Both the position numbers and the translations under genes were made by a program. A stretch of DNA of 63,650 nt, the filler included, from Collodictyon triciliatum (lineage: Eukaryota), in assembly GCA_043381765.1 (NCBI GenBank). It is 4 parts of 4 records of this genome, joined end to end, with 100 filler letters (N's around TTAATTAATTAA, not from the genome) between each part and the next. Parts side by side here need not be neighbours in the genome. Positions count along the whole stretch, not along the records: positions 31,948 to 49,004 come from JBHJMP010001491.1; 3 more parts are not named here. One strand, written 5' to 3'. The first letter of the stretch is position 1. Every line of letters begins with the position of its first letter. This document shows positions 26,801 through 49,104 of the stretch, piece after piece. Below the pieces are notes generated by a model. The model was not told the DNA's origin. It made no database searches and saw only the letters and a list, made by a program, of their open reading frames with translations.

Positions 26801-29800
26801 GTTTGGGCTTCAAACACTGAAATAGAGCCATCTTCGTATCCAATCAGCATGATATGATTGGTCTTGGCCAGTGGGACTAAATGTGATGATGTTATAACAC
26901 GCGTCTGACGAACCAATGATCGAATAATCGTATCATTAAAATCATACCAAAATTCGACACTCCCATCCGCTTTTCCAGCTATAAATACCACAGATGAATC
27001 ATTCATCCTAATTTTTTCATAACATGTGATTTCTTGTATTCTTGTTGGAAGCGTAATTAATTTGGCCTTTTTTTCATAGTCCCAAATGTGAATGCTTTCC
27101 TCTTCATCCTGAACAACACAAAATATCGACCCGTCTGCAGAACTTTGGATGAAGGTGGGAAAGAACTTCAGTAAAGACAAATCCAACTCATCCATTTTGG
27201 TTCCATCGAGTCCATTCCACTTTGAAATGATTACATTATCCCCAACTGTCAAAAGGTATGCAGCGTGGTTGATGTAGAGCTCTTGACTAAAATCAGGCAT
27301 AGGATTGGTCGTGACGCTGTTCCTTAATTTTTTGTCATACACAACATCTAGCTGGCGAATAATAGAGGAAATTTGGATGCTCTTAACCGCAGAATAATCT
27401 GCGCAGTTCCATATATTAAACTTCTTGTCATCCCCAGATGAGGCTATGAACGACCCAGTGTCATCGATATTGTACCAGGCTAAACAAGTCACGCCACCTT
27501 TATGTGCTTCCAAAGAGTGGGATTCTGTGCTATCAGAAAGGTTCCATACCTTAATGAAGCCGTCAATGCTACCCGAGCAGAACCTCGTTGGAGGGCTCTT
27601 TGTAGAATCTAGTGCGATGCATGATACCGCACCTGAATGACCAATATATGACTGGATCAATGAACTTGATGCAACATCCCATAAGTGTACCACCCGATCA
27701 CGACTTCCAGATAACAGGCAGTTTTGCTCATTCGGTCCAAACAAGTGTTTAATAACAACAACTTCTCCAGCATGTGCACGCAGATTAGCCACTGTTTCTC
27801 CCGTCTCAAGGTCCCAAACAGTAATATCTTTATCTGCAGTACCAGATGCGATACACCACACTCCAAAAACGCTCTTAAAGGGACACAGGCAATTGATTCT
27901 GGATTCATGTATTTTGATTTCTTTTGTAACTCCAAACCTGGCTCCGTCTAGGTTAGCATTCTCAAAATTGGATTCTTGGATAAAAGCATTCTCAAAGTTC
28001 ACATGACATAAATTGGCTGATGTGAAGTTCACTCGATGGAAATTTGCCCCACTCAAGTCTGCAAAGGGAATTCTAATGTCAGATAAATCTTTTCCTTGGA
28101 AGTTGTGTCCTGAATAGCTTAATATGGTTATTGCATTGGAAGCTATTGTTTCAAAATCGGCATTTTTTCTGGAGAGTAGAATACAATTAAATAAATGAGA
28201 TTGTAAAACGCGGTCATCCCTTGCTCGGTCAGCAATCAGCTTCATTTCTGTGTATCTGAGGGTCGTAGAGAGAATGTGAAATCCCTGAATTCTCGAGGTA
28301 TTTTCTTTGTTTTCTGCATTTATTGGGCCTAGCTGAGCCTCATTCAACGTCCAATACTGAGATAATGGTGCATAATTTTGAAGATGAGATAGTATCAATC
28401 CATGCTCAGATACATAATTTTTGGAAATCAAATCACAAATCAATAAACTAATGAAATATGAATGCAACAGTGGATGAATAAATTCAATGTACCCATCAGG
28501 TCTGGAATGAAGCATCAAATTTTCAACAAAAAATGAAAGGAGTGAAGATTTTGCATGAATTACAACTGGATTTTTACATGTTTTTTGAGTTTGAAATGGT
28601 GAATCAAGTGCGCAAAGAATTTCAATCGAACTATCATCCTCACTCTTTGGTTGTACACCAAAGTAAGGGGGGCTCTGGTCGTGGCATACATATGCAAATA
28701 CCTTTGACCAATCACTACATATACTCGTACCATAGCCACCATCATCAACGTGACCTTTCGATTCTGAAGTCCTAGTTTTCAAAAGGCTTGGTCGAGATGA
28801 AAAGTACCAGCCTTTGTAGATGTCAAAAATCTCAATAGCGTGTATAGGGCGTTGATAATCATAAGACGTTGTGTTGGACAGTGTCATGTAATTTTCTAAT
28901 GCGCTCATGAACATCGTGATATGAAAAGGAAGGCACAGGATGCGTTCAAAAGCTCGTAAGAGATTTATGTCAAAGTCCTCGTGCGAAGAAAGGATATCAT
29001 TCCGAGAAAGGAGCTCATTTATGTTTTTTTCGTCCCAGGGAGCCATCAAATATGTATGCTCACAGTCAAAGTCAGCGTGAGTATATCTACAGCCCAATTT
29101 AGGCATTTTGAGATGGCCTAAAATTTCATGTGCTTCATTTGTGAGTAAGAGTATCTTGTAATCAAAACCTTGCATAGTGTCGATGAGCTCCGACCATACG
29201 TTTCTTAAAAATTCACCATCTCGATCAAGAATAATTACAAAGAACCTTCCTCTGTTCAAATCTTGCTCTATAAATTCGGTTTCAATTCCCAAGTGGGCAG
29301 ACACCAGATTCAGGAGATATTTTAGAATATCATGGAAAGAAAATATTGTATCAAATTCCAGCAAACTACAGTCAAGTGGAATCGGGAACCTTTTTCCTGG
29401 ACTCCACTCCAATAATATGTTTTGAAACAATAATGTGGCCAGGGTAGTCTTTCCAGAACCATATGGTCCGCGAACAAGCATATGTTTGGAATCAGATTTT
29501 AGAAACATGTGAATGGAGTCCATAGCCTTGACACGGCTCATAACTCGCAAGCTAAGGAGTTCGGCATCCAAAAAGAGTCTCTTCTTTTCTTGAAAAAAGG
29601 GATGATTAGCAAGTTTATCTACAACCTCAAAACAAATCTCATCCATAGGTGATATATTCATGCATTTTGAAAATATTTCGCTTTCAGATGAAATAACAAA
29701 GCGCCTGGAGTAAGATTTCAGTGAATCAGACTGCAAAAGCTTCTTTTTCATGATATTTGATAGGTGCTCGTCCTGCTTTGCGTGTATCTCAAGTTTGGAA

Positions 29801-31680
29801 TAAATACGGGTAAGAGGTATAGATATTGCCGGATTTTCATGCTTACTAAGACTGTAAATCGCATCTAGAACAAATTCCCTGAAAGATTCACTTTCAACCC
29901 ATAACTGAGGGCGATAAACCATGACAGATAGAAAATGACCCAGCGATGATGCAAGGTCTTCGTTCGTGTAAACTTCAATCATTTCAATTACTGAAAGAAC
30001 CATGTTTGTAGACAACCCTGTACTTCTGCGATTTAGACACTCATCCAAGAGAAAGCGCTCAAAAGCTAGAAACTGGTGACTGTGTAAGTAGAATAAAGCG
30101 GTTTTGAGGTCCACGAACCATGTCTGGGTATTTGACTGCGCATCCAGATAGCTCAAAAAGTCATCCTGAATACCTTTTAGCGATGATATGTTTGGGTATT
30201 GTTGAAACCGAACCAGGGAGCTCAGACCCATACACAAAGGCTTTGATGATATCGATAATGAGGTGGATGAGCTTCCTTCAGCTTCGATCAAATTTAATGA
30301 TTCTAAAGATAGAGATGCTGATGATGTTATTCCGTAATCTGTTAGGGATAGGCACTTGGCTATGTGAGAAGACCAAGTTCGCCTTGTTTCTACGGGAATG
30401 TGGTGAATATTTAAGAAACTGATCAGCGATATAATATTGAATGTGGACGTCAATGTAACAAAAAGAACGTCACGCAAGTCTGAGGGGTCATCAATAGATG
30501 TAAAATCTTGAATATAAGCCATCTGAGAATCAACAAGTTGTATCATCGATTTAAAATGAGAGACGGTTAAATGCTCCGGTAGTGCCCACGAGATGATATA
30601 TTCAATAGCCCTCATGATGTAACTCACAGATTTTTTTTCAGAAACAGAAAACTCCTTTGCATTGGTTAAGCTCATGGCTTCTTTGATATAGACATCTAAG
30701 ACGCTGCATATAATCAACGGATGGTTAGCCTCTCCCAAACAGCATAATTCCATTATATCACCCGCTTGGAACCCACCTAGTCTACCAAATAGCCGTATGA
30801 CTTTCAAGGCAATTGCTACATAGCCCTCACCCTTTGGGGAATTTACATTATTGTTGACCAATTGAGCAAGCTGCAAAATCGAAGTGGGCGACTGAGCTGT
30901 GGAGACACGCGAGCGATTTATGCGTAACTCGATATCTGAAGAGAAAGCAGGGATAGAAGGGTCCTTAGCTAGGAGGGACGACAAAAGAGGAGATTTCACA
31001 GTCGTAATCATCGGAGAAGGATGTGCTGGACCTGCTGTTGATGGTGCGTGCCCTGAAGCACCACTTGCATTTCCTCTATTGCTGGAAATGCCACTCAGCG
31101 AGTTCCATGATGCATTATGACTTGTTGTCCCTTTTGGATTGTCTTGTTTTATTTCCTGTTCGATGAAAGTTCGATGAACACTTGATTGGGATTGCTTTGT
31201 ACCTTTTTGCTGACTTACATCTTGTGGTAATATAGCTTCCTGTGGCGCTACAGCTTGTGTATTGGACTTTGATATGCAATGCCCCCCACCGTAGAGCCCA
31301 GCGTTTCGATATGAAAAATGCAATCGGATGGGCATGCTGTAGCTAATTGGTTTCTTTTCTCGCTCACATTTGTTGATATTAAGATTCACCGGCCGAGTTT
31401 CATGGCGGTCTCTGCCTTTGCATGTTGTCATAAATGATACTATGTACATATCAAGTGGGATATATTGCAAGTACGCCAGGAAGCTTTCAAGGGTTTCATC
31501 GTTGATTTGGTGGTTCGTGTTACTTTGTACAAATTCTGATAGCCTTCCCTCAATAGTCACAACCCCATCAACCCAGCACTCATCACGAGACAAGCGTATC
31601 TTTACGCAACATCCATGACCCGCGGTGCCGGTACCGATGAAAATATCACCAAACGGAAGGTGAAATACTTTTTTCTTCAT
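23884..31680 (-). CDS. NLR-like STAND protein: helical region, NACHT-like NTPase, pentapeptide repeats, WD40 repeats, 12 Sel1-like repeats; single 7.8-kb ORF
   Basis: Walker A LVRGPYGSGKTT (about 29443-29469), Walker B-like FVIILDRDGE, IEFIHPLLHSYF, pentapeptides DLSDIRIPFADLSGANFHRVNFTSANL, WD40 units (GHSGAVSCIA...SGSIDGFIKVWN; AHQGPVQAL...SGGKDGKIQV) and Sel1 units (AQYSLGNLYYAGEGVAADHARALHWYLQAADQG). Confidence 0.9.
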   Translation of the reverse strand: MKKKVFHLPFGDIFIGTGTAGHGCCVKIRLSRDECWVDGVVTIEGRLSEFVQSNTNHQINDETLESFLAYLQYIPLDMYIVSFMTTCKGRDRHETRPVNLNINKCEREKKPISYSMPIRLHFSYRNAGLYGGGHCISKSNTQAVAPQEAILPQDVSQQKGTKQSQSSVHRTFIEQEIKQDNPKGTTSHNASWNSLSGISSNRGNASGASGHAPSTAGPAHPSPMITTVKSPLLSSLLAKDPSIPAFSSDIELRINRSRVSTAQSPTSILQLAQLVNNNVNSPKGEGYVAIALKVIRLFGRLGGFQAGDIMELCCLGEANHPLIICSVLDVYIKEAMSLTNAKEFSVSEKKSVSYIMRAIEYIISWALPEHLTVSHFKSMIQLVDSQMAYIQDFTSIDDPSDLRDVLFVTLTSTFNIISLISFLNIHHIPVETRRTWSSHIAKCLSLTDYGITSSASLSLESLNLIEAEGSSSTSLSISSKPLCMGLSSLVRFQQYPNISSLKGIQDDFLSYLDAQSNTQTWFVDLKTALFYLHSHQFLAFERFLLDECLNRRSTGLSTNMVLSVIEMIEVYTNEDLASSLGHFLSVMVYRPQLWVESESFREFVLDAIYSLSKHENPAISIPLTRIYSKLEIHAKQDEHLSNIMKKKLLQSDSLKSYSRRFVISSESEIFSKCMNISPMDEICFEVVDKLANHPFFQEKKRLFLDAELLSLRVMSRVKAMDSIHMFLKSDSKHMLVRGPYGSGKTTLATLLFQNILLEWSPGKRFPIPLDCSLLEFDTIFSFHDILKYLLNLVSAHLGIETEFIEQDLNRGRFFVIILDRDGEFLRNVWSELIDTMQGFDYKILLLTNEAHEILGHLKMPKLGCRYTHADFDCEHTYLMAPWDEKNINELLSRNDILSSHEDFDINLLRAFERILCLPFHITMFMSALENYMTLSNTTSYDYQRPIHAIEIFDIYKGWYFSSRPSLLKTRTSESKGHVDDGGYGTSICSDWSKVFAYVCHDQSPPYFGVQPKSEDDSSIEILCALDSPFQTQKTCKNPVVIHAKSSLLSFFVENLMLHSRPDGYIEFIHPLLHSYFISLLICDLISKNYVSEHGLILSHLQNYAPLSQYWTLNEAQLGPINAENKENTSRIQGFHILSTTLRYTEMKLIADRARDDRVLQSHLFNCILLSRKNADFETIASNAITILSYSGHNFQGKDLSDIRIPFADLSGANFHRVNFTSANLCHVNFENAFIQESNFENANLDGARFGVTKEIKIHESRINCLCPFKSVFGVWCIASGTADKDITVWDLETGETVANLRAHAGEVVVIKHLFGPNEQNCLLSGSRDRVVHLWDVASSSLIQSYIGHSGAVSCIALDSTKSPPTRFCSGSIDGFIKVWNLSDSTESHSLEAHKGGVTCLAWYNIDDTGSFIASSGDDKKFNIWNCADYSAVKSIQISSIIRQLDVVYDKKLRNSVTTNPMPDFSQELYINHAAYLLTVGDNVIISKWNGLDGTKMDELDLSLLKFFPTFIQSSADGSIFCVVQDEEESIHIWDYEKKAKLITLPTRIQEITCYEKIRMNDSSVVFIAGKADGSVEFWYDFNDTIIRSLVRQTRVITSSHLVPLAKTNHIMLIGYEDGSISVFEAQTGDEMDNIKLDSASIIHLTSYHKSGEYIVLAASSTNKIVQLSLRTKEKVVILQEGLRKVVFIGITFLPGVADGEKSVSSTSVQSIFETIVVVDVDGNIFLHIQQNGAMSEIKKSPFGNTTCCAMFSTEQTGAILVIGSDTGKLCIWDIAKKTAVRTIDAHQGPVQALTFSLANENEPMIISGGKDGKIQVIDARCMKLAYTFPENHFGVRSICTFNHENGDCLIASSANDCTLRLYSLRSKTLLDYQQPHHNIINSIHSSKCLSSSNSSYLFCISKHHMTCFLVSCIQIHDMFETVDEILVDIALRLMDTGNEWDKTQRKSKARATDTSLSTSIKSSERIRMSGAFDASTAENEKEATKLCRMKWEMNLVWRAGLIELHAMDSVVESSQNLTKSNTLVLMWEGAIVARQRLRKHCFGGLATAGQCLHLASWSEKEITDANSAGYSGQLFERVEQAACQGDPIALNWLIKGTRLGSLRACETLARVMRESSCADPLGYLELADFCFKGKGGETDLADSARWLWKAVEANSVYAQGIVRQLAASKLGVFQRLLGEMYASGIGVNSASPEQAVNLFLLAAEQDDDEARFRLGQMYASGCGVEQNFMESLNYFILAAEQGHSGAQHALGRMYHYGEGVEASITDALEWYAKAAEQSHAPSLKAIGDIWLSGEGGELNSAEALKWYLKAAEHSLADAFYAIAGMYGGRSASDQDTNPVQPDLTEAFRWLQKAADRSHTQAQYSLGNLYYAGEGVAADHARALHWYLQAADQGYADAQHMAGLMHASGEGTKDGLPDPAAAEMWYRKAIEQNHAESMCSLGQLHLAPGGRETRRDPRSALAWFAKAGQLGCAHAWTAMGSMYRDGEEGEGGGPEAVALDFDRAVECFTQAARLGDGDGQAALAQCYEQGLGVPVDLGQARIWYEKAADQAQADALFALGRFHERGLGGLARRGDKARECFQAAAGLGHEEAAEALRRF

Positions 31681-31847
31681 GTCTTCCCGTGGCGGCTTAA
31701 CAGTATAATATCTGGAATTATTGATGATGTTCAGTGGCTCGTCTTTTGAATAACAGGGTTATAGCGAGTTACTGTAAAAAAAAAAAAAAAAAAAAAAAAA
31801 AGGAAACGAAAAAAAGGTTTTTTTTTTATCTTTTTTTTTATTTTTTT

Positions 31848-31947
31848 NNNNNNNNNNNNNNNNNNNNNNNNNNNNNNNNNNNNNNNNNNNNTTAATTAAT
31901 TAANNNNNNNNNNNNNNNNNNNNNNNNNNNNNNNNNNNNNNNNNNNN
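31848..31947. other. Artificial contig spacer
   Basis: N44-TTAATTAATTAA-N44. Confidence 0.97.
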
Positions 31948-31981
31948 AATAATAATAATAACGATAATAATAATGATAATG

Positions 31982-32016
<35 letters not shown>

Positions 32017-32059
32017 GATAATGATAATGATAATGATAATGATAATGATAATGATAATG

Positions 32060-32094
<35 letters not shown>

Positions 32095-32137
32095 GATAAT
32101 GATAATGATAATAATAACGATAATAATAATGATAATG

Positions 32138-32172
<35 letters not shown>

Positions 32173-32195
32173 GATAGATAATGATAATGATAATG

Positions 32196-32272
<77 letters not shown>

Positions 32273-32297
32273 GATAATGATAATGATAATAATAACG

Positions 32298-32332
<35 letters not shown>

Positions 32333-32410
32333 GATAATGATAATGATAATGATAATGATAATGATAATGATAATGATAATGATAATGATAATGATAATGA
32401 TAATGATAAT
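31948..32410. repeat. (AATGAT)n/(AAT)n microsatellite, probably inside a DNA ligase intron
   Basis: Imperfect hexamer repeat at the contig start, upstream of acceptor ATTAG|TCC at 32485. Confidence 0.9.
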
Positions 32411-32485
32411 TACAATAATTACAAAACGCAGCTCATTCTCCAAGATAATTTAATATAATCTTACCCGATGTACACTCCACATTAG

Positions 32486-35400
32486 TCCATGCAGAAGAAG
32501 CAGGATAAGATCAAAAAGTTGTTTGTATCTGCCCGCGATTGTGAGGTATAATTAAATAGTAAATTTGCATAAGAGGCTTCTAGTTTTATCATTTTAATTT
32601 CATTTTTACTTTTCGTATTGCACCAAAAGATTCGCTACCTTGTTCGGTCACTCGGAGGAAAGCTTCGAATTGGACTCGCTGAACCTTCTGTTCTTGTGGC
32701 ACTTGGACAGGCATTCACACTTACACCCAGTCAAAGTACGTAAAGTGTTGCAGGAAGCACCTTACTCTTTCGTCTCTCAATAGATTTATATGTGTGCTAC
32801 TTTTTTGATGGCTAACTTTGAACGGAAGGTGCTTTGTTGATTGGGATTGAATTTTATGTTGGTTCTCTTATCTTCTACATATTTATTGTTTCACGCGCAT
32901 GCGATTGCAATTTGATTGTTAATATTTTTTTCAACGAAAGCACAACACGACGCTGGAAAATCGATGAGTGTTTCGGATTTAGAAATTGCTCTAGAAAATG
33001 CCGTGAACATTGTTAAACAAGTATTCTAGTATTTTTAATTTATTTTCATTCGAAACGTTCAGAAGATAAATACATATGGGAACTCTTTTATATTATTTAT
33101 TACACATCTTGAGCATACTCTGAAATGTCTCAGTTGTGTGGATTTAATCGTATTCATACAAACTGAATTGAATGTTCTCTTCCATTCTAGGTATATCATG
33201 AAGTACCCTGCTATGAACAGATCATACCGGCACTTTTAGCTGGTGGAGTGACCCATTTGCGAGCCTCCTGCTACTTTACCCCAGGCGTGTTTAACATAAT
33301 ACTCAAATTTCTGTACACACAATTCTTGATAAAAGAAACATATTTTCACACCACTACTTTGGGACTTAATAGGTGTCCCTGTGAAACCTATGCTCGCAAA
33401 ACCCACGAAGGGGATTGGGGAGGTAATAATTTGCTCCGAATATGCTATTCATTATCTTAAGATATCTGCAATTTCTCTCTCCTTTTTGAAAAAAAAAAGA
33501 GAGAGAAAACATACAATAAAATATGCAATATACATCACTTTTATCGTTCTAACTTATTCGACTTTCAAAAAAAAATTATGAGAAGTTGACTCCGAATATT
33601 GAATAACTACGACTAAGTAATCTTAAAAATATAACTCTAGGCTCTGGACAGATTCTCTGACCTCCCATTCACATGCGAATTTAAATATGATGGAGAAAGA
33701 GCGCAGGTATTGATTTTTTCTACTTCTCTGGTCAGTTCAAAATATTATCTGATCATCATATCTCTTGAATATCCAACTAAATGTGAATGGCCTTCCTTCA
33801 AATCTCGTAGATTCACCTTCTTGACGATGGCACTGTCCGCATATATAGCCGCAATTCGGAAAACCTGACACCCAAGTATCCTGATATTATCAAACTTTTG
33901 CCGAAGGTTAACTTTTTTTGGTTATTTTTACTTTTCATTTCAATTTGACAAATATATTAATTCTTTATGTTTTACGCCGTGCTTTTTTTTCTTTCTTAAA
34001 AATAAATACCTATGTGGAGTGTCTGAATCGTCATTCTTATATAGATAACTCGAGAGGGTGTTAAATCATTTGTGCTGGACACAGAGGTGGTGGCCATTAA
34101 CAAAGACTCGAAGAAACTTATGCCTTTTCAAATTTTGTCTACACGTGCCCGCAAGGTCTAAAAAAATGGCTCACACACTATATTTCATTCAAATTGAATA
34201 CACCATTTAGATGTTTAATGCCTATATGTTTTCTGTTAAAAAATCAATCATGAGCAAAATAATTGAATTTTCCTCTTGCAAGCTTCATCTATCTGCAAAA
34301 AGTAACTTTTCGCCCTCTTCGCATCTATCTGTTAGCTCATCAAAATAATTATCTTAGGACGTGAAAATGGAAGACATCAAAGTTTCTGTTTGCCTTTATG
34401 GATTTGATTGTTTGTATATGGATGGAAAGGTAATATAATTATTCGACTTGCTAGTCGATAAATATTTTTAAGTATATTTAAAAATGATTTGGGTGGAACT
34501 TTTCTTTCATATTCTTTTATTAGTGCTTACTGCAAGAATCCCTCCGAAAACGTCGTGACATTTTGAGAGAAACATTCACAGAAATTGAGCATGAAGTAAG
34601 ACCTTTATTCATTACCTTTTCTTCTCCATTTTTTCTGGATTTCTCTGACCTTAGTATTTTTCTAATTTATGTAATATCTTTATGAATTTTTTGAAGTATT
34701 GGGCATCTTTAATTTTCCCTTTATATTCTTTAAAATTATTTCACTAGTTTTAATGAAACGTCTATCCATGAATAGTCAAAGATGAAGACTTGAATTGCGG
34801 CAACAAATGTAAACATATCCCATTTTTCCGATTAGTTTCGTTACGCCCAAAGTATGGATTCCAACGATGTCGAAGAAATCCAGCATTTCCTTCACGAAGC
34901 AATATCATCAAGTTGTGAGGGACTCATGGTACGAATGAAACGTGTAAAAGCAGAAAAGACTGAAATTTCTATCATTCATTATTATGTATGTCTTAAAATC
35001 GATTTCTTAAATTATTTCTTTAAACCCAAGGTCAAGACACTTGATGCTGATTCAACTTATGAACCATCAAAGCGCTCCCATAAATGGCTTAAGGTGAAAA
35101 AGGACTACTTGGACGGATTGGGCGATTCTTTTGACCTTGTTCCTATAGGTATACTTACACGAAAACAAGATGAATACTCCTTTCAAATAATTTGGATTGA
35201 TTGGGTGTAGTTCTCTTGAATCATCATCACCAATAACAATAGCAAGCTTCGCTGCTCTATTTGACTATTTATCTTAATGCTCAACATCCACGTTCAAAAA
35301 AAAGGCTATTTCATACAACGTTAGGTGCATATTATGGAAAGGGAAAGAGAACAGGAGTATTTGGTGCATATCTTCTTGCTTGTTATGATGAAGACAATGA

Positions 35401-36279
35401 AGAATATCAAACCATATGCAAAGTGCTATTTCATTCCAGAAACATATTTCCTTCAGACAAAAATACGATGACTTAATCGATTAATTTACTAAATCTTATT
35501 TAAGCTATACAAAAAAGAAATTTAAAATATCAGTTTTTTTATAAATCATACAAACTTTATTATGTAGCTCGGAACTGGATTCTCTGACGAAGATTTACAA
35601 GAACACTCCAATTTCTTAAAGCAACACATCATTAAGTCTCCTCCATCTTATTATCAGTATCCAGATAATCCAGGTTGGTTCTCTATCATGATTTTTTTTA
35701 AAAAAATAAAATAAAATAAATTGGATACAAGTTCGCATCGCTGGTGCATTTTAAAAAAATTACCCATACACAAAGAATGAGGCAAGCAAAAGACGTGCTG
35801 TGTTAAAAGCAAAATTTTGCTCAATGCTCTTATCATCCTTTTTCAGCCCTGATTCCGGATGTATGGTTCGAGCCTCGTCAAGTCTGGGAAATCTTGGCTG
35901 CAGATTTGTCCATATCACCACAACACAAGGCTGCTATTGGAGTGGTATATCTCATTTGCATAACGTTTTCTCATAAAATCTCATTTAATGAGTGCGATTT
36001 CAAGAATTTGATGGCAGAGTAGTCGCTTTTGCAGATTCCATACTTCTCTGTGAGCTCTGATTAAGTTTTTTTTTTTTGTACCCGTCGACCAAACAACTGC
36101 TGAAACTGTATTTATGAAAGGTGGATGAAAACAAAGGGATAGCTTTGAGATTTCCCAGATTTGTACGAATCCGCACAGACAAGAACCCAGAGGATGCAAC
36201 CCGGAATTCCCAAGTAGTAGAGATGTATCGCAAGCAAGCATCTGCTAGCCATGCCTTGGTCGATGATGATGACGATTAA
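32486..36279 (+). CDS. LIG1: ATP-dependent DNA ligase I (Cdc9), 5'-truncated, 16 visible exons
   Basis: [48 protein letters not shown] (motif I, KxDG), [18 protein letters not shown]...[46 protein letters not shown]...[23 protein letters not shown]...DDDDD*. Confidence 0.97.
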
Positions 36280-36542
36280 ACCCCAACTAATAGGATGATG
36301 GCCACTATTTTTTTTTTACAGTTGATGTGCTTTCTATCTAAGCAGAAAAGGCAATTTTGAAATAAAAAATGACCAATCGTCCCCTTACTCATAACTCAAC
36401 ATCGCTTTGTGACTAAAACATGTAAATGAAAGAAGAAAAAAGGAAATCTCGCTGCAGGAGCAGTTTATTTCGATTTCGCTTCGTCTAGCAAAGAAGTCTA
36501 TAAAACTTTGCAGAAATTCAGCAGACATGATAGAGTAATTAC

Positions 36543-37235
36543 AGTAAACCAATCAAACAACGGCAAAGAGTCTCAAGGTAGAAGTGCATAAAACTCTTCA
36601 AGGTCAACACTATCAAATCAGTGAAGCTACAGCTGAAAAATTCCGTGATTAACACTTTTGTAAAAGGAGCAAACGAAACACTGAAACGCAGAATATATGG
36701 ATACCTACAAAAGAATGAGAAATACCCCATCCAAGGTTTATATGTGTTTGTAGATAGCATTAACCTTGTCAAAAACAAAACTAAAAGAGTCGTAGCTGAG
36801 GTAGCGATACTTCCAAAGTACCTGAATCAAGCTCCAGAGATTCAAGAAATATACTATGAACGTAAAAACAAAGACAATCAAACAGATAAAACTTTTCAAG
36901 CACCTGGTTAATTACAAATATTATCAAAAAATGAACATTAGATTCAATTTAGTGAATGAAATGTGAGATTCAAAAGCGTGTTTGCTGTATTGGCGTTTGT
37001 GAATATTTACTACATTGGAAGAGCCGGACCCCACAAAACAAAATAGTGCTCTTTATATCACATAAAATGTGATAATGAATACGCTGCAAAGAAAAAGCTC
37101 ATGGGCTTCGAATTGCTATTGATCGACGATACTATCACACACGTCAAAAAACTCAAGCCCCGGAAGCGACTCATGGAAGAGTTTGAATTACGAGACGAGA
37201 TTGATGAACCCATTGAAAATACAGGCAACAGATGA
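36543..37235 (+). pseudogene. Decayed intronless reading frame, possibly an old retrotransposon ORF1 relic
   Basis: The frame of ORF 36621-36911 continues through several stops without frameshift to ...CSLYHIKCDNEYAAKKKLMGFELLLIDDTITHVKKLKPRK, an RRM-like pattern. Adjacent to the LINE. Confidence 0.3.
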
Positions 37236-37587
37236 AATAAAATAGCCGAAAGGGCTCCAACATAGAGCTAAATTTTAAAAATCGGTATTGAAATACTTCT
37301 TAGGTCGTGCATGTTTCCTTTTCTCTGGAGCATCAGCCTCTTCTGTTTTGACTCCGCTTCTTCAACAACGTTTGTATCATTCATTTGCTAATTTATGTAG
37401 TCTCCACATTTTTCCTGTAATTTTTCTGTATCTATCTTGCACTTTCACTTTTTGGCTTCTGCAAGTGACACTTTGGCCACTCGCTGAACCAAGAGTTGTA
37501 TTCTTTAACATCAAACTTGGAATTAACAAAGAAATATGTTCTTTCCTCGGTGACGCTTCATCTTTTGTCGTTCGTCACAGCCCGCAA

Positions 37588-39215
37588 TTTTTTTTTTTTA
37601 TTCTTCCTTTCAATTTTGTGCAGGATGGTGAAGGTGTTGGCTTTGGTTCGCTAGCCATCGTTTGCATGGACGCTACTTGGTGGCCGGGTGGCGGAGAAGT
37701 AGTCGGTAATCAGGAATTGCATCCTGCGGTTTGGCCTGTAGCCTGGGTCTTGTGCTTGCATAAGAGATACAAGGCGAGGTTTAATATCTTTCTCAGATTC
37801 TTTCCACATGTCTCTTCTCACGGGGTCGGAGTAGTAGAGAACGTGCAGGTGGCGAAGAAAGCTATTGAGGAAAGAGATTTGTATGATGTCATTCAGCCTG
37901 TTATCAGGAATGGGTGGCTGGTTGTTGAATCTTGCTTTGCGTGAGTATATGCGCGCTATCCACATAGTCCATAGCAAATGGCCTCGCGTCACTGCCCAGA
38001 ATGTTTTTGCATCTGGACGCAGCTGTTGCAGAGGCCCAAATATCGCCTGGATTGGGCCAACAGCTGCAGCCGTCTTGAGTGTCAGTCGAAGAATCTCACC
38101 GGCTGTTTCGCGCAGGTTTTGAGCGAAGGGACATTGCACAAATGTGTGCTCAATGGATTCATCACCGTTGCTGCAAAGTGTGCATTGTTGGGAGACTTTG
38201 CCAGCTTTTGCCGCGCGTGTGCCTATCCATAGCTCCCTATTGGTGATATTAAGCATTAGAGAGCGGTGATTTGGAAGGACTTGCGGGGTTCGTGCTTGTC
38301 TCCAGCTCGCGGTGAGCGGGGTGTGGGTGATGCCCAGGGTTTCTCCCCACCGTTGATGTTTTGACTTTTTGTAAGGTGTCGGCGGCGATATTTTGTATCG
38401 AAAGAATTTGGAGTAGGCCATAGCCATCGAGAACTGCATAGACTGCGCACCGTTAGACGAGCGTTCGTTCTTGAGGCGGAAAAAAAAAGGCGACGGGATG
38501 CCGTATGAGATTGGTCTGCGTGAGCGCCACTTTCCTTTGTTGTTAAGGACGGCTGTGGTTGGCTGTGCATCTTGTGTGCGGAATGCGGTGGAGCCTGGCG
38601 TTGTGATGTATGAGCCGTCTTCTTTGAATGAGATTTCTCTGATGGTGGCCGCGTTGCCTTCATGAATCTGTTTGATGATGCAGAAGCCTTTCTGGTTGTC
38701 CCAGCATATTTGTCCTGCTGCCAATGGCTCGTTCAGGGGTATTGTCATTTCGCAGTGAGTATACAGAATCTGCCAACGCGAGAGCAAAGGCTCTGGTGTG
38801 TTTGGAGGTGGTCGTGGGATTGTCCTTTGTTGCAACTGTGTTTTGAAGTCTGCACACAGTTTGGTGATGAGTTTCCACATCCCAATTTGCCAAAACCCTT
38901 TCGGCTGCATGAACATGTCCGTCCACCACTTCATGGTCAGTGATATCCATGCGGTTTTGGGTGTGATGAGTCCAACGCCTCCTTCTGTAGGTGGCTTAAT
39001 CAGTGTTTTGATTTTGTATTGCTGTCTCTTTGTTGTGATGAAGGTGCGGCATATGCTCTCCAGTGTGTCGAGATGCTTTTGAGGTAGGTGAGAGCCCTTC
39101 ATGTTGTGGATGAGGGTCGATAGCATGAGTTGGTTCCATAGTCTCGCTTTTCCGATGTCTGACAGATGGAATCTTTTCCAAGGGGCGATTGTGGACTTTA
39201 TTTTGTCGACCATAT
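37588..39215 (-). mobile_element. 5'-truncated non-LTR retrotransposon (L1/Tx1-like): C-terminal part of ORF2, short 3' UTR and poly(A)
   Basis: Post-RT motifs VDKIKSTIAPWKRFHLSDIGKARL...KPPTEGGVGL, zf-RVT-type CTLCSNGDESIEHTFVQCPFA, and LWTMWIAR. Stop at 37651, then about 50 nt of UTR and A12. No RT or endonuclease core, so 5'-truncated. Confidence 0.9.
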
Positions 39216-40291
39216 TATACTGCAATGAATCTAAGTTTACAATGGAAAATGCAAAAGATATGATGAATCGAATATTTGCGTCTTCGATAATATACACAAT
39301 AAAGTCAGAATTTTCTATTTTTACATCCGTATATGACATTCCCTTATTTTACAAAGCGAAAGTAGAAATACACCCCCATAAAGGAATCAAAGAAATAAAC
39401 TGAAATAATTGGCTGAGTAGTTTTCATGTAAAACTATATGTGTAGACTGGAGCTTTTGTTGTTCTCGCCTAATCGAATCCATGCTGTAATTTTTTCTTNN
39501 NNNNNNNNNNNNNNNNNNNNNNNNNNNNNNNNNNNNNNNNNNNNNNNNNNNNNNNNNNNNNNNNNNNNNNNNNNNNNNNNNNNNNTTTCTCTTTTTCTCT
39601 TTTTTTTACATTCTCATCTAATAAAACCAAAAAAACAAATAAAATTGTCTTATTCTGACTTTATATTCTTTATCCTCCTTATTGTTTGCCGGGATGAATC
39701 GACAGGTTCCTACATACCGAGTTCTGTCGATTTACATATGCTCGTTTAGCACTCTCGGAGAAACTATGAAAGAATTGCAGCCCAGCTATCTATTCAGAAA
39801 TCAAACTTCAGTCCTTAATTGAATAGTTGCTTATCAAGAGATAATAAATACAGCAACTGCAAATCTACGAAATCTCGATTCGTCATATAGAAGCAAGAAT
39901 AGATTTGGCCGAAAAGCGGAATTGTCTATTGAAGTGCTTGTTGTTTATGTGATTGTCATCAATGAGTTCGATGCTCTATTTGAAATACTATCCCAAGAAA
40001 TGATGATATGAAGGTTTTCTTATTAAGAATGAAAAAGTGAATTTTTCAAAGTCCTCTATTTTCTCTGTTGACATCAAAAAGCTTTACGAAAAAGAAAAAT
40101 ATATATAACTTTGGGTAATTAGACTATTCGATTGTGGTGGGTTTTCTGCTTGTATTTGTGTATGATTTCGTTTTCTTTTTATTCTTGGTGGCAAGAGCGA
40201 GAGAAAGATGAAGAGAGTACAGATTGTGGAGATGGGAAAATCGAAAGAGGCGGAGTGAGAGAAAGAGACAAGAGAACAAATGCAGGTCTAT

Positions 40292-40939
<648 letters not shown>

Positions 40940-41923
40940 TTATATACAAGAACTTGGCTGACACAGAGTGCCAATTTCGGAAGTCGCTGTTTTCGGTGAA
41001 TAGAAAGAGACCAAAGATACACAAACTGCGACCCAGCATTCGGAGAATAGACAGAGTGCGACACAACATGATTGAGAGCATACGGCAGCATATTGCATAT
41101 GGAATTTGAGCGACTCATACAACCATCGACCCGCAGTCGGAGAATATCGGATATACTACTATATTTTCCACATGCAGACGACAAATCCAGAAAACAACAT
41201 ACATCACAGACAACCATTTTTTTCTGTTGACGAAAACATGACTGAAAAGTAGATTATTGGATTAATCGTAAGATTGATTTTGTTGTTTTGTGAATGGGAT
41301 ATGTACTCAGTAAAAAGCGGAAGGTATTGATGCACCTTGCAGACCGAGATTACGGTTGTCATACGCGCTCATGTGGAATGCCATCCGCACCACTCAAAAA
41401 TCATTAACCATTTCAGACTCGGATACCAAGAAAAGTAGCTTGTTTACGGAAGCTCAACCAGAGCATAAGACAGCAAAGCCGCTTCCATGAATCAAGTGTG
41501 GCCATAGCAAGGCTTTGAGAGCAGCTTATATATGTCAAATCCTATCGACGAGTATTTGATACCGTGTGGATAAACAATGCGGCTATGAGGCAGCTTCAGG
41601 ACTTTTTGTTCATCTTAAACACTCACAATCAAAATAAAAGTATCAGGATTATCAGACTCCACCTGAAGATGAATAGCTAGGACTTCCGACTTCACAATTT
41701 GATTAGACAGCTTCAATTGAGGGTCGATGAGCATATTGCGTACCCGAAATACTTTCAGTGATGCGAAGGATGCACCGAAATCATCAATATGAGCATATTT
41801 TAAAGAACACATGTGGTTCTGTTCGATACGTCTTATATGAATATGTGGTTGGATACATATGTAGTCACTGCCGCAAATAGCTTCTCGGGATACATGATAT
41901 GAGTGGCAGCAGAGACAAACTCA

Positions 41924-42820
41924 ATGGAATCGGACATGCTTCTCGCACAAATGGAAAACATGCGCCTTAAGGAAAACACAAGTCGCGACCCATCGAAGGC
42001 TTTACAAGTTGTAGTCAGTTCTTCCGGTTCCAACACTGGTGCGGAAAAACCCCGAGTTGCACGTAAGTCTAGGAAAACCCGTGCATGGAAGCCGCCTGCA
42101 AGTCTGTCTGAGCGGACAGTATTTTTGCACGGGGTCGAGCAAGTCGTTTGCTACAAGAACAAGGCTCACAGGCTCACAGATGCGCTCGCCTCCTTCTTGA
42201 AAGCGAACAAAGTTTCGGAAGAGTCCATCCAATTGCGCTTACCGGACAGCGAAGCCCTTTGCCTGATCGCCTTCCGCACTGCAGAAAACGTCCGAAAGCT
42301 TCTGGAGGTGAAGCAGGTAAGTTTGAGCGATATTACGATCAGCTTCAGCAGAAGTAAAACAACAGAGACCTCAGTGATGCTCTACCAACTACCGCTGGAC
42401 GTGTGGCCGCAACTTCGTGTGGAGCTTAAGCCGTTCAGACCGACCCACGTGGAGATAAAAAAGGACAAAGGCTTCTTCACAGACACGGCCGTGGTGAAGC
42501 TTCTTTGTCACATGAACCGGCTCCATGCAAAGTTTACGGTCATGGGTAAAAAGTGTCCAAAGCGCATCCTCAAAGAGCGTCCGCCAGCTGCGAACAACGA
42601 ACGACAAGTAAAAGCTCCGAAAAAGAATACACCTGCCAAGCAGACAAGCAGCAACGGGGTCAAGGAAGCCAAGGCCAGGCAACAACAAAGTCCGCAAGAC
42701 TCCCAGCAGATACACGAATACAGCAACAGCGACGACGACATGGAAGGAAATCTCGGTTCCTATTCGGCATCTGCGCACTTGAGCCCAACACCACCAACAC
42801 CGACAATACCACCTAACTGA
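41924..42820 (+). mobile_element. Orphan ORF1-like protein of a non-LTR retrotransposon (RRM-like), not followed by ORF2
   Basis: Intronless and GC-richer than the flanks. LCLIAFRTAENVRKLL...TSVMLYQLPLDV...LRVELKPF...KGFFTDTAVVKL resembles Tx1/L1 ORF1 RRMs; basic, low-complexity tail. Confidence 0.6.
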
Positions 42821-43281
42821 AATTCCGTCGCCTCGAACAAAATCAAAAATCGCGTTGCAATTTGCCTCTCGTATAATGGTCTATATGTGTGAAAGTAATC
42901 ACTTTTTTTTTTTTTTTTAACAATTTTTGACTTTTTCTCTACTGACATCCGAAAAAAACCAGTGTGAAATTATATCGAGACCCTACCCTTTTTCTCTTCA
43001 AATCACACTACTAGATGGGTGGCTTTGAAATTTTTTTATATTTTTGTCGTATTATTATCTCAATACTATATTGATAATAATACTACAACTTTTCAAGCAG
43101 TTTGTTAAAAAAATTCTTTATTTATAAAGGTATAAGAAAAATCTATACACGGGTGTCATGTAACCGTCAAAATGTAGAGTATTTGAAGTCACAAAGCGGC
43201 TATTAACTTTATTGCGCAGGACATCGTAGGCAAATAATACACCATTTTTTGCGGTTTCTGCACTGTTTACATTTTGACAAC

Positions 43282-43815
43282 ATACAGGGGCAGACGTTGT
43301 AGTCCAGCTGGCATGGGACAGCGTCTGACCTGCGCGAATGTGGTTCGAACCCCACAGGGTGCGCGGTGTGTGTGATTCCGGCCCTGTATCACGCATTTCC
43401 TGAGCCCTCCTCCTGCGCCCTCAGTTATACCCAATCCAGGGCAGCCGGGGTGTGCTTCGCCGGACAACGGAGCACACCCCACAACTTTTGAAGAAAATAA
43501 CATCACCAGAAGAGTGCTTCCATGGAGAGGAATGAGATACCATATCTACGCCGAGCTTCGACCCCACAAAAAGACACCCCACAGAATTGTCCCCCCTCTA
43601 TTCCATGTCTGCCCTTCTTGGAAAACCCCCGTGCCCCCCAGACACCCCTTTGTAACACCCAGGCCACAGGCCAAACTGCAGGATGCAATCCTGAGTACCG
43701 GCTCCTTCTTCGCCACCCGGCCAACAAGTAGCGCCCATACAACCGATGGCTAGCGAACCAAAGCCAACACACCCCCTCGGTCCTGCACAAAGTTTAAAGG
43801 AAGAATAAAAAAAAA
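43282..43815 (+). mobile_element. tRNA-derived SINE with a LINE-derived 3' tail
   Basis: A box TAGTCCAGCTGG (43300-43311), B box GGTTCGAACCC (43342-43352), D-arm GTCC/GGAC. The tail 43657-43815 aligns with the reverse complement of LINE 37588-37748 and ends GGAAGAATAAAAAAAAA. Confidence 0.85.
43300..43352 (+). promoter_or_regulatory. Internal RNA polymerase III type-2 promoter (A and B boxes)
   Basis: Near-consensus boxes about 30 nt apart, as in tRNA genes. Confidence 0.8.
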
Positions 43816-44456
43816 TAGCTGTGACATCATATGTCTCATTCGACATATGAATGGAGCAAAAAGACGCAATTTTCAAATTATAATGTCATATATGCTTTAC
43901 ATTCGACATAAATAAGTGATGAGATATATGACTATCTTTGCAATATATCGCTTGCTGACTAAGTTATTTATGAGAATATTAGTTGCCTGTCATATGTATT
44001 AAGGGATGGGTGTGTTTCTATACGCGAAGAGTTATCCATTGAACCAAACACCTATCGACATGGCCGGTATTATGGATGTAATGTTTATGGGAACTGCGGC
44101 CTATCTACAGGTTTTTTTTATTTACAAATATATATGAGTTTAGTGAGTCATGGGTGCTTTAAAAATTAAAAAATGGAACGATGAAGCCAGAAAAATCAGC
44201 GATGCCGAATGGACATATAACTAAGAAATTTGTTAGATACAAAACGTCAATAATGACGCAAACGTAATCAAACTATCCTCCTTTTATTCATTTTTACATA
44301 CTTGTTATTCAAAGCGCATAGGTCGATTTATAACACGATTCAGGACTCGGTTTGTAATAAATTTGCGACAAGAGAACCAGACATGATTTGATAAAACTCT
44401 TCATGCTGATATATTTATCATGCATACTTTTTTCAATTTAGAGATGATTTATCAAC

Positions 44457-44735
44457 TTTTTTTTTATATTTTCAATCTGATTTGTGCAATATTAGGTGTG
44501 TTGGCTTTGATTCGCTAGCATTTGTTTGCATGGATGCCTCCATCGGAACCTGAGTGACAGAATAGTAGTCGGTAATTAGGATTTCATACCGCTCTTTGGC
44601 CTGTAGTCTGGGTCTTGTGGTGCATGAGAGGTAAGAGGAGGTTAAATCACTTTCTCGGTTTCTTTACACACATCTCTTCTCACAGGGTCTGACTAATGAA
44701 GAATGTGAAGATGGTAAAATAATCAGTTGTGGAAA
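44457..44735 (-). mobile_element. Older diverged 3' fragment of the same LINE family
   Basis: On the + strand GTGTTGGCTTTGATTCGCTAGC...TAGTCGGTAATTAGG...TTTGGCCTGTAGTCTGGGTCTTGTG...TCTCTTCTCACAGGGTC is colinear with 37616-37870; T-run at 44457. Confidence 0.8.
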
Positions 44736-47700
44736 TGGGGAGTCCTTTCACATTAGTAGCAAAGATTCTGCATTTTCATAGTCTCTAACCCTTATAACCA
44801 TGCACAAAATTATTGCATGAAGATACATCCTGCACGTGTGAGAAATACAAACTCATCCCCTTTGGTATGACGAAGTTTTATTAGTTCATTTTTTTTTAAC
44901 CTTTCATCTCATAAAATATCAGGTTTATTTCCCTTATCTTTATGCAACACACATTTTTTTGGAGAGATTAGTGAAATCGGTGCCTTATGTTACCAATCAC
45001 TTATTTATCTATAATTATTTATATTAAAAAAACATTAATCCGATCATAGGCTATGGTTTTCTGCTCTGCGAATTTTGTGTTGAATAAACGACACGATTGA
45101 ATTGTTTTGGCGAGCCTTACACAAGTTAGTAAATTCAAGTATTTCTAACTACACATTCATAATTTCAGACGTGATACATTTTAGAATATGATTAATTTGA
45201 TTTTTGAGCGTTTATAATTTTTATATTAAGACGAATAGATACTATGATTATGTCGTCATATATAGGTCGATATTGTCAACACAAGGTCTGGTAACTAACA
45301 TTTAAACTCAGTGCCCTTCTTCATTTATCATTCCGATGTCTTATTTTTGTATTTTTATTGAGTAGTAATGACTGCATTCATGCCTCTTGATGGGCTGCTA
45401 AAGTCAACGAAAGTAAAAGAGGTTTTTTTTTATAATGAATCTATATTTTTTTAACTTCACACATGGAAATCGATTGATACAGGGACTGTATGAATTCTGT
45501 CGACTTTGATTATCCCTTCAGTCTATTCTTATCCAATTCTAAGAACCGTAAACACGTGTAGCCACTGCACAACCAAATTGCTTTCATTCTTGATAATATA
45601 ATATTGATGTATAGAATGATTGTATTCATGATGATGCCCACATTGATGAGAAAGATAATCATTCATTTATACCATGCAGGAGCGAGTTGGAGGCCTTTGA
45701 ATACCCAATTTGGCCGAATGAAGACGAAGCTGCTTGCTTATTATGTTTCGCGGCTCACGGTTTATTACGTTACCTGAAATGAAAGATTATATTAAACAAA
45801 TGCTTTTATTTTACCTCATTTTTTTTACGTGATTAAAATAAAAGATTTATAAATTTATGTCTGTTTCATGCTCCATAGCTATTCTGGCTAACATCAGAAA
45901 AGCTCAACACATCACATTTTTTAATAGTTTATTTTTTTATGAATCTGATTCAATCGAAAAATATTTAAGCAAAATAGGTGTTTATATATCAGCATCATAA
46001 TAATCTGGAGATATATCTTTCATATACCTTGATTTCCAATAAGTTTGTTAATGATGAGTCAGAAGTAACCTACGAATGAATAAAGATAGTCACACTTGGG
46101 TTTATAAGAACAAACCAGCTGATGAGAGAAAACCGATGATTTAATATCAAAATATTAGTTACTAAACAACGATGACATACGATTTTTTTTGAGGAGTTTT
46201 GATTCTAATAGCCATTGTTTAGTCATATTTTGAATCATTTCGTGTCAAATAATTATATAGAAATCATCTTTTGTACCTGATTTTCACTAACTTTTACTCA
46301 CGCTCTGAATCCTGCGAAGGTCGTGGTAAAAGGACACGAGACAAAACAACCAAGGGAAAGGGAACTGTTCGATCTGCTGCTACTACCGAGGGGGGAGGGG
46401 TGGTTGGATGGACGGCTCCTAGTTTTTCCGATGATATGAAGAGATGGTCTAAGGAACGATTTGTGGGGTGTGGGGATGAGTTGTTGTGTGAGAAAAAGTA
46501 AGTCTCTTAGTTGTCCAAAATTTCATAAAAAAATAATAATAAAAAATCATTTCAATATATTCAATGTGTTAAATTGAACGCTAAGGAACAGGTATGTTAT
46601 CACAAACCTATATTTTATATATTTGTACGAATTGCAATTTTCATGTAGCATTATACGATTTGTATTTTATTCAAAGAAATCAATATGTCAATGAAGCAAA
46701 CAAATGCAGCTGTGTTTGTTCAGTGCAATTATATTTTGCTTTTCATAACCAATCAAAGCTTAATAATACACCAGCGATGTCCGTGCCTGCAGACTTCAGA
46801 ATTTATCTTTCTATTCTATTAAAAAATGTGTGTGAAAGATGAATTTTAATTTTGCAATTACTCTAATTTGCTAGCTGTGTCTAATTATTACAAAACTGAT
46901 AGGAGTCCTTGCCGAGCTGATAGCCACGTTTCCCACGAAAGGAGTATCTTATTCTATGCACATTCCGTTATTTTAATATCCTAATTAATCAAGAACAACT
47001 ATCTGCTCGGAACATCCTTGCCTCAGTTCGCCGCCTGTGATACCACCACCTCCCCCCGACTCGGCTGGGAATGCACACTCGACAACAGCTCATCCTCGCC
47101 CACATAGATCGTTGCCTCGCTCCGGCTGCCTTTTTGTTGGTGTATGGTAAGGAGCATGAAGTGTTTTATTGGAATGAATATATATGTATGTGTGGGGTGT
47201 CCACTGAAGCTCATGTAGCTGATTTTATTTATTATTCTTTTCTTTTTCTTTCTTTTCGATGGAGTAACGCACGTTGATCGAAAGCGCTGGCTTGAAGTAA
47301 ACACACAACCAAACACAAGAATAGAGCCCTCCGCTCGACCAAAGGTTCCCAGCCGCACCTAATCGCCCACAAAGAGCGCCCGGAAGCAGAACCTGTACGG
47401 AACCGGCTGCCACGTCCGCCTTCGAGGTAAGCACAAATGCTCCGAACTACCACACCACATAGAGGTAAGGAAAGAATAAGCCAAAGTCCTGAAAGACATC
47501 GAGTGCCACGATGAGAAGAATATCACCCGGCTATTAGGTCAACTTCAAGAATATACTACAGCCTTTTCCAAAAGAAAAAATCGCCGAGAGAGAGAGAGAG
47601 AGAGAGAGTTTAACAATACTTGACTGCATTTTTTTATCGTGCCCATAACAAGAGAGGCCAGTTCTTCGCTACCCATTATCTGCCGCATTCCCCCGGGCTT

Positions 47701-49004
47701 CATCAAGGGCGACATTGAAGGAGCATGAAAAACAACAAACAAATCATCTTCACAGTATTCTTCAATGGTTAAAACGTGTTTTTGATGAATGAAGCACTGA
47801 ATAGCAATCTGGCATCAGAACTACCCAAAGTATGAAAAAAAAATAACAATTCTATGTTACGTTTCTCTCACTATTTCGTACTCTGTCAGAGAACACAAGG
47901 AAAAAGCCAAAAGAAAATATCATGGTTAACACCGCCACAAACACTAACAGAACGAGCTGCCAAGCATAGAAAGACAATGTCGACCCTTTTAAACCCAACC
48001 ACCCGGAGCTATGGAAGAATAAGCATCGCTCAAGCAAGAGCAACCTTCACAAGGGCTTTCCAAAAAGAGCGGACGGGTTATTAGAGACGCGCCTCACACT
48101 AAAACAATCTGGACAAGCAATTCAAGGTGCAATAATATGAATTCTGAATTATTTTTTATTTTATGCAAAATGCAAGTTTACTTTTTCATTCATATAGTAT
48201 TTAGTATACAAGGATAATTCCTAACGAAGATTATATTTCACGATTTGTCTGTTAATGCAAGGCACATATGGAAAAAAACGCTTCCGTTGAATGGAAGGCA
48301 AGCACCTAAAACCTGCAAAACCTAAGCGGTGGTGGTTCTGGTATTTTTTTATCCCACGTAAAGCCTTCACGATGAGAATCTCAGGCTATAATTAACGGAG
48401 AGTAGTATATGAGTACTGGTATTATAATTTTATTTTGTTTGTAAATTTTTCATTCTGTGGGAATATACTAACCATCACATATAGTTTGGGACATTTGCAC
48501 AATTTAGAATAGATTCAGAGGAATTATATAAGTCGACCTGGAAGAATATCAATCTATTACGCAGACTTTCATACATCACATTTGTTGTATTATACGAAAT
48601 AATTAGCATTAAGAGAATGTTTAGTGGCTGTATGATGCATAAGCAACTCACATCCATATTATTTACAACAAAAAGAAAGCAATTAAAATATAAAATTCAT
48701 CTCATGTTGAGATATATTTGTATTCACGAATAGTTTATTTCATAACAAGAAAAATAAAATATTAAGAGTTGTAATATTGAGCTCTAAGCTTTAATACAAT
48801 ATAATCTTGTTAGCCTATTGAAACTATCTAAAACGCATTCAAAATACGAATCGATAAATCAAACAACTTCCATTCATGAAAAAGTAGAATAACTTCATTG
48901 ATACTTGGCATATATTATAACCCATGAATACGATGTTTTTTATGCAACACACACGAAGGAATAGGAAGATTCAAAACATGTCTGCAACCGAAACAAGCAC
49001 CGAG

Positions 49005-49104
49005 NNNNNNNNNNNNNNNNNNNNNNNNNNNNNNNNNNNNNNNNNNNNTTAATTAATTAANNNNNNNNNNNNNNNNNNNNNNNNNNNNNNNNNNNNNNNN
49101 NNNN
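49005..49104. other. Artificial contig spacer
   Basis: N44-TTAATTAATTAA-N44. Confidence 0.97.

Follow-up and report, generated by a model that had tools for sequence, protein, structure and literature searches.

The window analysed here is a 63.65 kb stretch of DNA from Collodictyon triciliatum, in which contigs are separated by N44-TTAATTAATTAA-N44 spacers (17091-17190, 31848-31947 and 49005-49104); further N runs lie at 6191-6565, 23219-23743, 39499-39585 and 57559-57734. The plus strand carries a SINE-like unit of 531 nt (43285-43815), composed of a tRNA-like head, a body, a LINE-derived tail and a run of nine A's. This element and two 5'-truncated LINE pieces, both on the minus strand, are found on one contig, 31948-49004. 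The coordinates of all these features, with the basis of each call, are listed in Table 1.

Table 1. Features of the SINE-like unit and of the LINE pieces in the window (strand:., not assigned).
Feature	Position	Strand	Basis or remark
Whole SINE-like unit	43285..43815	+	G+C step and reading of the sequence
Degenerate tRNA-like head, Val-GAC-like cloverleaf	43293..43362	+	ARAGORN only at -ps90 or lower
A-box-like motif TAGTCCAGCTGG	43300..43311	+	regex match to presumed consensus
B-box-like motif GGTTCGAACCC	43342..43352	+	sole hit of the strict B-box pattern, both strands of the window considered
Body of unassigned origin, ~290 nt	43363..43653	+	no other match in the window
13-bp hairpin in body	43447..43480	+	MFE fold; inverted self-match
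TTTT run, possible Pol III stop ~200 nt into the element	43486..43489	+	read directly; effect predicted
LINE-derived tail: ORF2 end, stop codon and 3' UTR	43654..43806	+	blastn to 37751-37591 (-)
A9 run	43807..43815	+	read from the sequence
TSD candidate, 5' copy TGACAACATA	43275..43284	.	10 nt, 1 mismatch to 43822-43831
TSD candidate, 3' copy TGACATCATA	43822..43831	.	TAGCTG between A-run and 3' copy
5'-truncated L1-like LINE copy, donor type of the tail	37588..39348	-	C-terminal 565 codons of ORF2, 3' UTR and A12 run
Third, more diverged 5'-truncated LINE tail, 273 nt	44462..44734	-	70.5% to the SINE tail

Three other open frames of the window were annotated. An uninterrupted frame of 2,624 codons (23887-31758, minus strand) encodes WD40 beta-propellers and, at its C-terminus, Sel1 repeats (Sel1, E 1.4e-59), and is responsible for the G+C peak at 24-26 kb. 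On the same strand, the frame at 40292-40939 contains two ubiquitin repeats (Pfam ubiquitin, E 1.4e-55, in two stretches). Underlying this frame is a 228-nt tandem duplication with 84% likeness between the copies; the frame is preceded by a 15-nt repeat array that codes for SKQD-type repeats, and it looks like a decaying or unusual polyubiquitin. The third frame, 305 codons on the plus strand (41903-42817), ends 460 nt upstream of the element. Its Atlas neighbours score 0.82-0.87, and some of them carry zf-CCHC or RRM domains; the frame itself matched no Pfam family, and we saw no connection between it and the element. A host gene and a remnant of the gag/ORF1 type are both conceivable.

The limits of the SINE-like unit are marked by steps in base composition. 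The G+C content rises from 0.38 to 0.57 at about position 43280 and falls to 0.28 at 43800; between these steps, 40-nt windows have values of 0.50-0.72, with the exception of one AT-rich window at 43480, and the flanks have values of 0.25-0.40. The 5' end was placed, from this single copy, by composition together with the best candidate for a target site duplication. This candidate, TGACAACATA/TGACATCATA, is a weak one: it is 10 nt long with one mismatch, its 3' copy lies 6 nt (TAGCTG) past the A-run, and it was equalled in 65 of 2,000 shuffles. TGACAACATA is the best direct repeat in 43100-43700 for the 39 nt that follow the A-run, and it lies exactly at the compositional 5' edge. The same direct-repeat search, over 43100-43700, gave no flanking candidate of at least 8 nt for the tail alone. 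Regarding size, SINEBase describes SINEs as non-autonomous elements shorter than 1 kb and typically below 700 bp (PMC3531059); the unit has 531 nt, and its ORFs are without relatives in the protein clusters searched.

The LINE copy also has a TSD candidate, 12 nt with one mismatch (39464-39453 and 37573-37562), located 14 nt past its A-run. The spacers that follow the A-runs of the SINE-like unit and of the LINE copy both hold GCTG and then TGAC, and the 8-mer GCTGTGAC is present just past the A-run in the two of them (43816-43831 and 37562-37587, respectively). This common 8-mer could be a target preference, a short terminus beyond the A's or chance, which a rough estimate puts at roughly 1%. 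Apart from this 8-mer, present behind two A-runs, no common target was seen for the three insertions that the window contains.

The original prediction described the head as a degenerate tRNA with A and B boxes, and several lines of evidence agree with it. The two box motifs were called with consensus patterns that we take to be the standard ones. The strict B-box pattern has one match on both strands of the window, against 0.24 expected per shuffled window, and the combination of A and B boxes at the spacing found in tRNAs (30-60 nt) was observed once, against 0.017 per block-shuffled window. Using ARAGORN with default settings, no tRNA was identified in the whole window. At 90% of the threshold (-ps90), the program placed a tRNA-Val(GAC) at exactly 43293-43362, with five of seven pairs in the acceptor stem, a D stem of 4 bp and an anticodon stem of four pairs plus one mismatch. 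This setting returned two hits in the real window, where shuffled windows average 0.55, and a total of 37 in 2,000 shuffles of the 531-nt element. The other hit, a tRNA-Ser(GGA) at 15043-15118 on the plus strand, is likely to be noise in view of the rate of 0.55 per shuffled window. With the Rfam tRNA model the head remained below the reporting level of E<=10, whether 701 nt or 96 nt were searched. Since neither ARAGORN at default settings nor this model finds a tRNA, the head is not a functional-looking tRNA.

We also compared the head with 32 distinct tRNAs from one bacterial genome, a stand-in set for the proper comparison, which is with the tRNAs of the organism itself. Against this set the head is 66% identical to a tRNA-Arg over 73 columns and 67% identical to a tRNA-Ala over 61 columns, and its best local score was equalled by one of 300 shuffled heads. 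Taken together, the box pair, the sub-threshold cloverleaf and the identity to tRNAs indicate that, as far as the sequence can tell, the head is tRNA-related above chance. Numerically, and with bacterial stand-in tRNAs, the identities reach the level that SINEBase gives for SINE heads, a minimum of 60% to a tRNA, 5S or 7SL RNA across 60 nt or more (PMC3531059). The same source treats A and B boxes as an indication and not as proof (PMC3531059).

The body was expected to be unique and GC-rich, and so it proved: the composition given above holds across it bar the single 40-nt window, and blastn against the 63.65 kb window found no other match even at E<=10. In Rfam, one chance match to a lncRNA (E 2.8) was all that was returned for the body, and the whole window has no family at the gathering score. 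The best local alignments of the body with the LINE copy upstream of the tail were not significant, being equalled by 33 of 500 and 34 of 200 shuffles. For this reason, the homology to the LINE can be said to begin sharply at position 43654. The full-length relatives of the LINE likewise gave no tblastn match in the body.

The body contains a strong hairpin of 13 bp, and the TTTT run starts five bases past it. Four T's stop Pol III in many eukaryotes. If they do so here, the present copy may therefore give a transcript of only ~205 nt, without the LINE tail. The internal TTTT argues against full-length Pol III transcripts from the present copy. It could mean that this copy is dead, that more T's in a row are required by the Pol III of the host, or that a small RNA, formerly independent, gave rise to the first 205 nt.

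The tail is the part of the unit with the clearest relationship. A blastn search of 43201-43900 against the window aligned 43654-43815 (plus strand) with 37751-37591 (minus strand) at 87.1% identity over 163 columns (E 1.45e-51). The stretch in common comprises ~32 codons at the end of the LINE ORF, its TAG stop codon and a 3' UTR of ~55 nt, which bears out the proposal that the tail is homologous to the last codons and the 3' UTR of the LINE. The 32-mer quoted in the original prediction has two occurrences at up to three mismatches, against 0.00 expected in 100 shuffles. Both the SINE-like unit and the LINE copy finish with GGAAGAATA and an A-run. Directly before the A-run, which is A9 in the unit and A12 in the LINE, both elements have AAAGGAAGAATA; these are the two exact occurrences among four matches at up to two mismatches. 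As in LINE-tailed SINEs, the 3' end of the unit is thus held in common, through the A-run, with a LINE of the same genome. The LINE copy is 6 kb away on the opposite strand, and the match between the two is also an inverted repeat in the window. A deletion of 1 nt in the coding part breaks the LINE reading frame in the tail of the element.

The third LINE tail aligns with the element as well, 43654-43773 matching 44616-44495 (minus strand) at 70.5% over 122 columns (E 9e-10). At the protein level it has 54% identity to residues 493-544 of P0001 (tblastn, E 3e-09). It is 650 nt away from the element, the two facing each other with their tails, and has a block of 21 identical positions in 22 around the stop codon (GCTAGCGAAYCAAAGCCAACAC), against ~70% identity overall. 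The consensus fold of the three tails is weak (-5.3 kcal/mol), with a 5-bp hairpin around the stop codon as its only structure.

The LINE copy has a single open frame, 37651-39348 on the minus strand, of 565 aa, in which zf-RVT (E 4.7e-08) is the only domain. The neighbouring element had been taken for a Tx1/L1-like LINE. That it is probably L1-like is supported through its relatives, one of which, P0010, was compared with human L1 ORF2p; what lies in the window is a 5'-truncated piece with zf-RVT alone, and not a whole LINE. An exhaustive HMMER search of 1.84 billion protein representatives found 90 relatives of the LINE protein at E<=1e-3, 22 at E<=1e-10 and 10 at E<=1e-30. It is this exhaustive search that supplied the relatives; a word-index search of the LINE protein against longer proteins returned none. 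Most of the relatives are short pieces from metagenome assemblies, with up to 95% identity, and the full-length proteins have 1,226-1,275 aa and 24-29% identity. P0010, P0012 and P0016 have the domains Exo_endo_phos, RVT_1 and zf-RVT; P0021 (24%) has Exo_endo_phos and RVT_1 only. In tblastn comparisons, the full-length relatives align to the LINE copy of the window from about residue 760, just past the RT domain, to about 1250. P0010 matched human LINE-1 ORF2p with E 3.4e-57 over residues 3-871 and, far less well, R2 proteins with E 1e-23. On account of the domains of its relatives (the group with APE, RT and zf-RVT) and of this match to human L1 ORF2p, the donor of the tail is considered L1-like. 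Two other independent 5'-truncated tails within 7 kb, and complete relatives of ~1,230 aa, suggest that this LINE group is active in kind. The LINE ORF ends in ...RRMQFLITDYFSATRPPSSVHANDG (37651-37740, minus strand), and the matching stretch is frameshifted in the SINE-like tail. The residues QFLITDYF at the end of this ORF fit Q-x-x-[ILM]-x-x-[FY]-[FY], which we take to be the PIP-box pattern.

In order to place the element beyond this locus, we searched public data with several of its parts. Within the 63.65 kb window, blastn finds one copy of head plus body. A 20-mer of the body against JGI metagenome contigs had one chance match, a G+C-rich, bacterial-looking contig sharing 21 nt, and a 22-mer of the tail against genome contigs also had one, a gammaproteobacterial scaffold sharing 25-28 nt. 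Among viral contigs, four patterns had 0 matches each and the LINE protein gave no confirmed locus. P0099, the longest frame of the element, with 125 aa and spanning the junction of body and tail, had 0 hits from 11 candidates in 5.8 billion protein clusters. A mixed profile of five frames of the SINE had 0 hits from 517 candidates, with reduced sensitivity as a profile of unrelated rows. The fact that pieces of the LINE protein were found and the SINE frames were not mildly suggests that, in public data, the LINE is much the commoner of the two. We also inspected 20 of 24 public runs; these 20 are from 16 studies, mostly freshwater metagenomes, and seven are recorded as RNA. Each contains between 8 and 20% of the words sampled from 43000-44100, and in no run does the share come to half; we draw nothing on copy number from these figures.

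These results support only in part the original prediction of a SINE family moved by the LINE. The layout of head, body and LINE tail is present; the repeated family was not borne out, as no second copy was found and head plus body occur once in 63.65 kb. What the window offers is one well-formed candidate rather than a demonstrated repeat family. The best reading, to which we give somewhat less than an even chance, is that 43285-43815 was retroposed as one unit built like a tRNA-related SINE. According to this reading, Pol III would start ~10-15 nt upstream of the A box, at the point where the G+C-rich unit begins, and the tRNA-like features are indeed in sense orientation at the very 5' edge of the unit. 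The tail would be a copy of the last ~97 coding bases and the 3' UTR of an L1-like LINE, with an A-run at its end. The LINE-like 3' end and the A-run of the transcript would be bound in trans by the ORF2 protein of the LINE, and target-primed reverse transcription would then place a copy of the RNA at a nicked target, with a short duplication of the target as its trace.

Alternatively, the unit could be a one-off chimera, in which the RT of the LINE started on LINE RNA and, after ~160 nt, switched to an unrelated Pol III RNA with a tRNA-like head, or in which the two RNAs had been ligated beforehand; such a product would never have been amplified. We regard this as rather unlikely, and several observations are in line with it: the only copy found, both in the window and in the outside searches, the sharp break between LINE and non-LINE sequence at 43654, and the first ~205 nt, which resemble a self-contained Pol III unit ending in a hairpin and TTTT. 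In chimeras of the U6/L1 type, the small RNA directly abuts the LINE piece. Here about 167 nt of unexplained sequence (43490-43653) separate the TTTT from the LINE tail, so that two template switches would be needed. Chimeras formed by template switching or ligation are also the presumed way in which SINEs are born, and with a single copy the founder of a SINE family and a one-off chimera are indistinguishable. Precedents for such fusions have been described, with U6 joined to L1 and in the case of a LINE from fungi (PMC4476161, PMC2104539, PMC6789731).

A less probable explanation, and one we consider unlikely, is chance juxtaposition, the 5'-truncated LINE tail (43654-43815) having been inserted next to an older G+C-rich sequence with a decayed tRNA gene or a tRNA-like relic. 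Truncated tails of this LINE group are common, and one of 273 nt is found 650 nt away. Yet the tail by itself has no TSD candidate of at least 8 nt around it, the best candidate encloses the unit as a whole, and the G+C content is continuous over the junction. Furthermore, the tRNA-like head has the same orientation as the tail and lies at the compositional 5' edge, with a pair of A and B boxes for which the expectation is 0.017 per window. The way in which the head is oriented and placed, the unbroken composition, the site of the TSD candidate and the reach of the tail to the end of the LINE together favour one retroposed unit over a truncated LINE tail beside unrelated DNA.

It is also conceivable, at a probability that we judge to be very low, that the element is an internally deleted, non-autonomous derivative of the LINE, with head and body representing the 5' end of the LINE itself joined to its 3' end. 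Two points are in its favour: the 5' end of the LINE, and with it the 5' UTR, is absent from the window, and LINEs of the Tx1 type can carry heads that derive from small RNAs and are common to their SINEs, as reported for one such group (PMC4494074). Against this derivation, LINEs do not, to our knowledge, usually begin with A and B boxes of the tRNA type. The body is also unlike the 1.7 kb of LINE that are present, and the full-length relatives gave no tblastn match there. Finally, an assembly artefact, a false join of two loci at the LINE tail, is highly improbable. The window is indeed pieced together from contigs, with N runs and the TTAATTAATTAA linker between them, but the element is far from either end of its contig (31948-49004), no sequence common to another locus of the window lies at the join, and the AT-rich flanks on both sides are alike in composition.

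The retroposed, tRNA-headed unit can be compared with several known systems. Tail sharing between SINEs and LINEs is textbook knowledge for L2, CR1 and RTE partners. Partners of the L1 type were said in the original prediction to be less common, in agreement with a survey of 2012 in which the L1 clade accounts for three of 58 SINE/LINE pairs with a common tail (PMC3472496). The L1-tailed SINEs named by Ohshima are ZmSINE2 and ZmSINE3 with the maize LINE1-1_ZM, and SINEX-3_CR with L1-1_CR of Chlamydomonas (PMC3472496). A stringent mode of recognising the 3' end has been proposed there as ancestral in plant L1 lineages (PMC3472496; see also PMC3747384). Like the Chlamydomonas pair, the element has a 3' end in common with an L1-clade LINE (~80 nt there and ~160 here), poly(A) and a unicellular host (PMC3472496, PMC3747384); that pair, however, consists of repeat families with a consensus, whereas here there is one copy, likened to it by description only. 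In maize, too, the SINEs have the conserved 3' end of an L1-clade LINE, LINE1-1_ZM, which has been read as 'stringent' recognition (PMC3472496). The maize elements have a conserved stem-loop of ~50 nt with compensatory changes, in contrast with the weak fold of -5.3 kcal/mol obtained for the three tails of the window.

The organization into head, body and LINE-derived tail is also that of tRNA-derived SINEs with stringent-type LINE partners, such as UnaSINE1 with UnaL2 in the eel, for which use of the RT of the partner has been proposed (PMC3531059). The partners in pairs of this type are L2, CR1 or RTE elements ending in short repeats, unlike the L1-like, A-tailed partner seen here. Like the chimeras of U6 and L1 and of the fungal LINE, the element would have a short Pol III transcript on its 5' side fused to the 5'-truncated 3' end of a LINE (PMC4476161, PMC2104539, PMC6789731); those are scattered one-offs in which the small RNA is recognisable, while in the present case the 5' RNA is not recognisable and about 167 nt lie between its putative TTTT end and the LINE part. 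The crocodilian SINEU and Tx1-Mar elements offer a further parallel, as a LINE of the Tx1 group moves SINEs and has modules in common with them (PMC4494074). They differ in that the SINEU heads derive from U1 and U2 and that the link was made through a shared target preference (PMC4494074). Our literature searches found no description of SINEs from Diphyllatea or CRuMs.

SINE/LINE pairs that share a tail are the main evidence as to which LINEs recognise their own 3' end, and they are rare in the L1 clade. We tentatively propose, as a possible if doubtful interpretation, that this little-studied lineage of freshwater protists has an L1-like LINE by which not poly(A) alone but the element's own 3' end is recognised, in the stringent manner, and that this LINE has spawned a tRNA-headed SINE sharing a tail of ~160 nt that includes the end of ORF2. 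If this is true, the pair would be the fourth or so SINE/LINE tail pair in the L1 clade and the first outside green plants and algae. Its confirmation in a deep-branching protist would provide a data point on stringent recognition as the ancestral state in L1-like elements and, for a lineage with almost no genomic description, a repeat marker.
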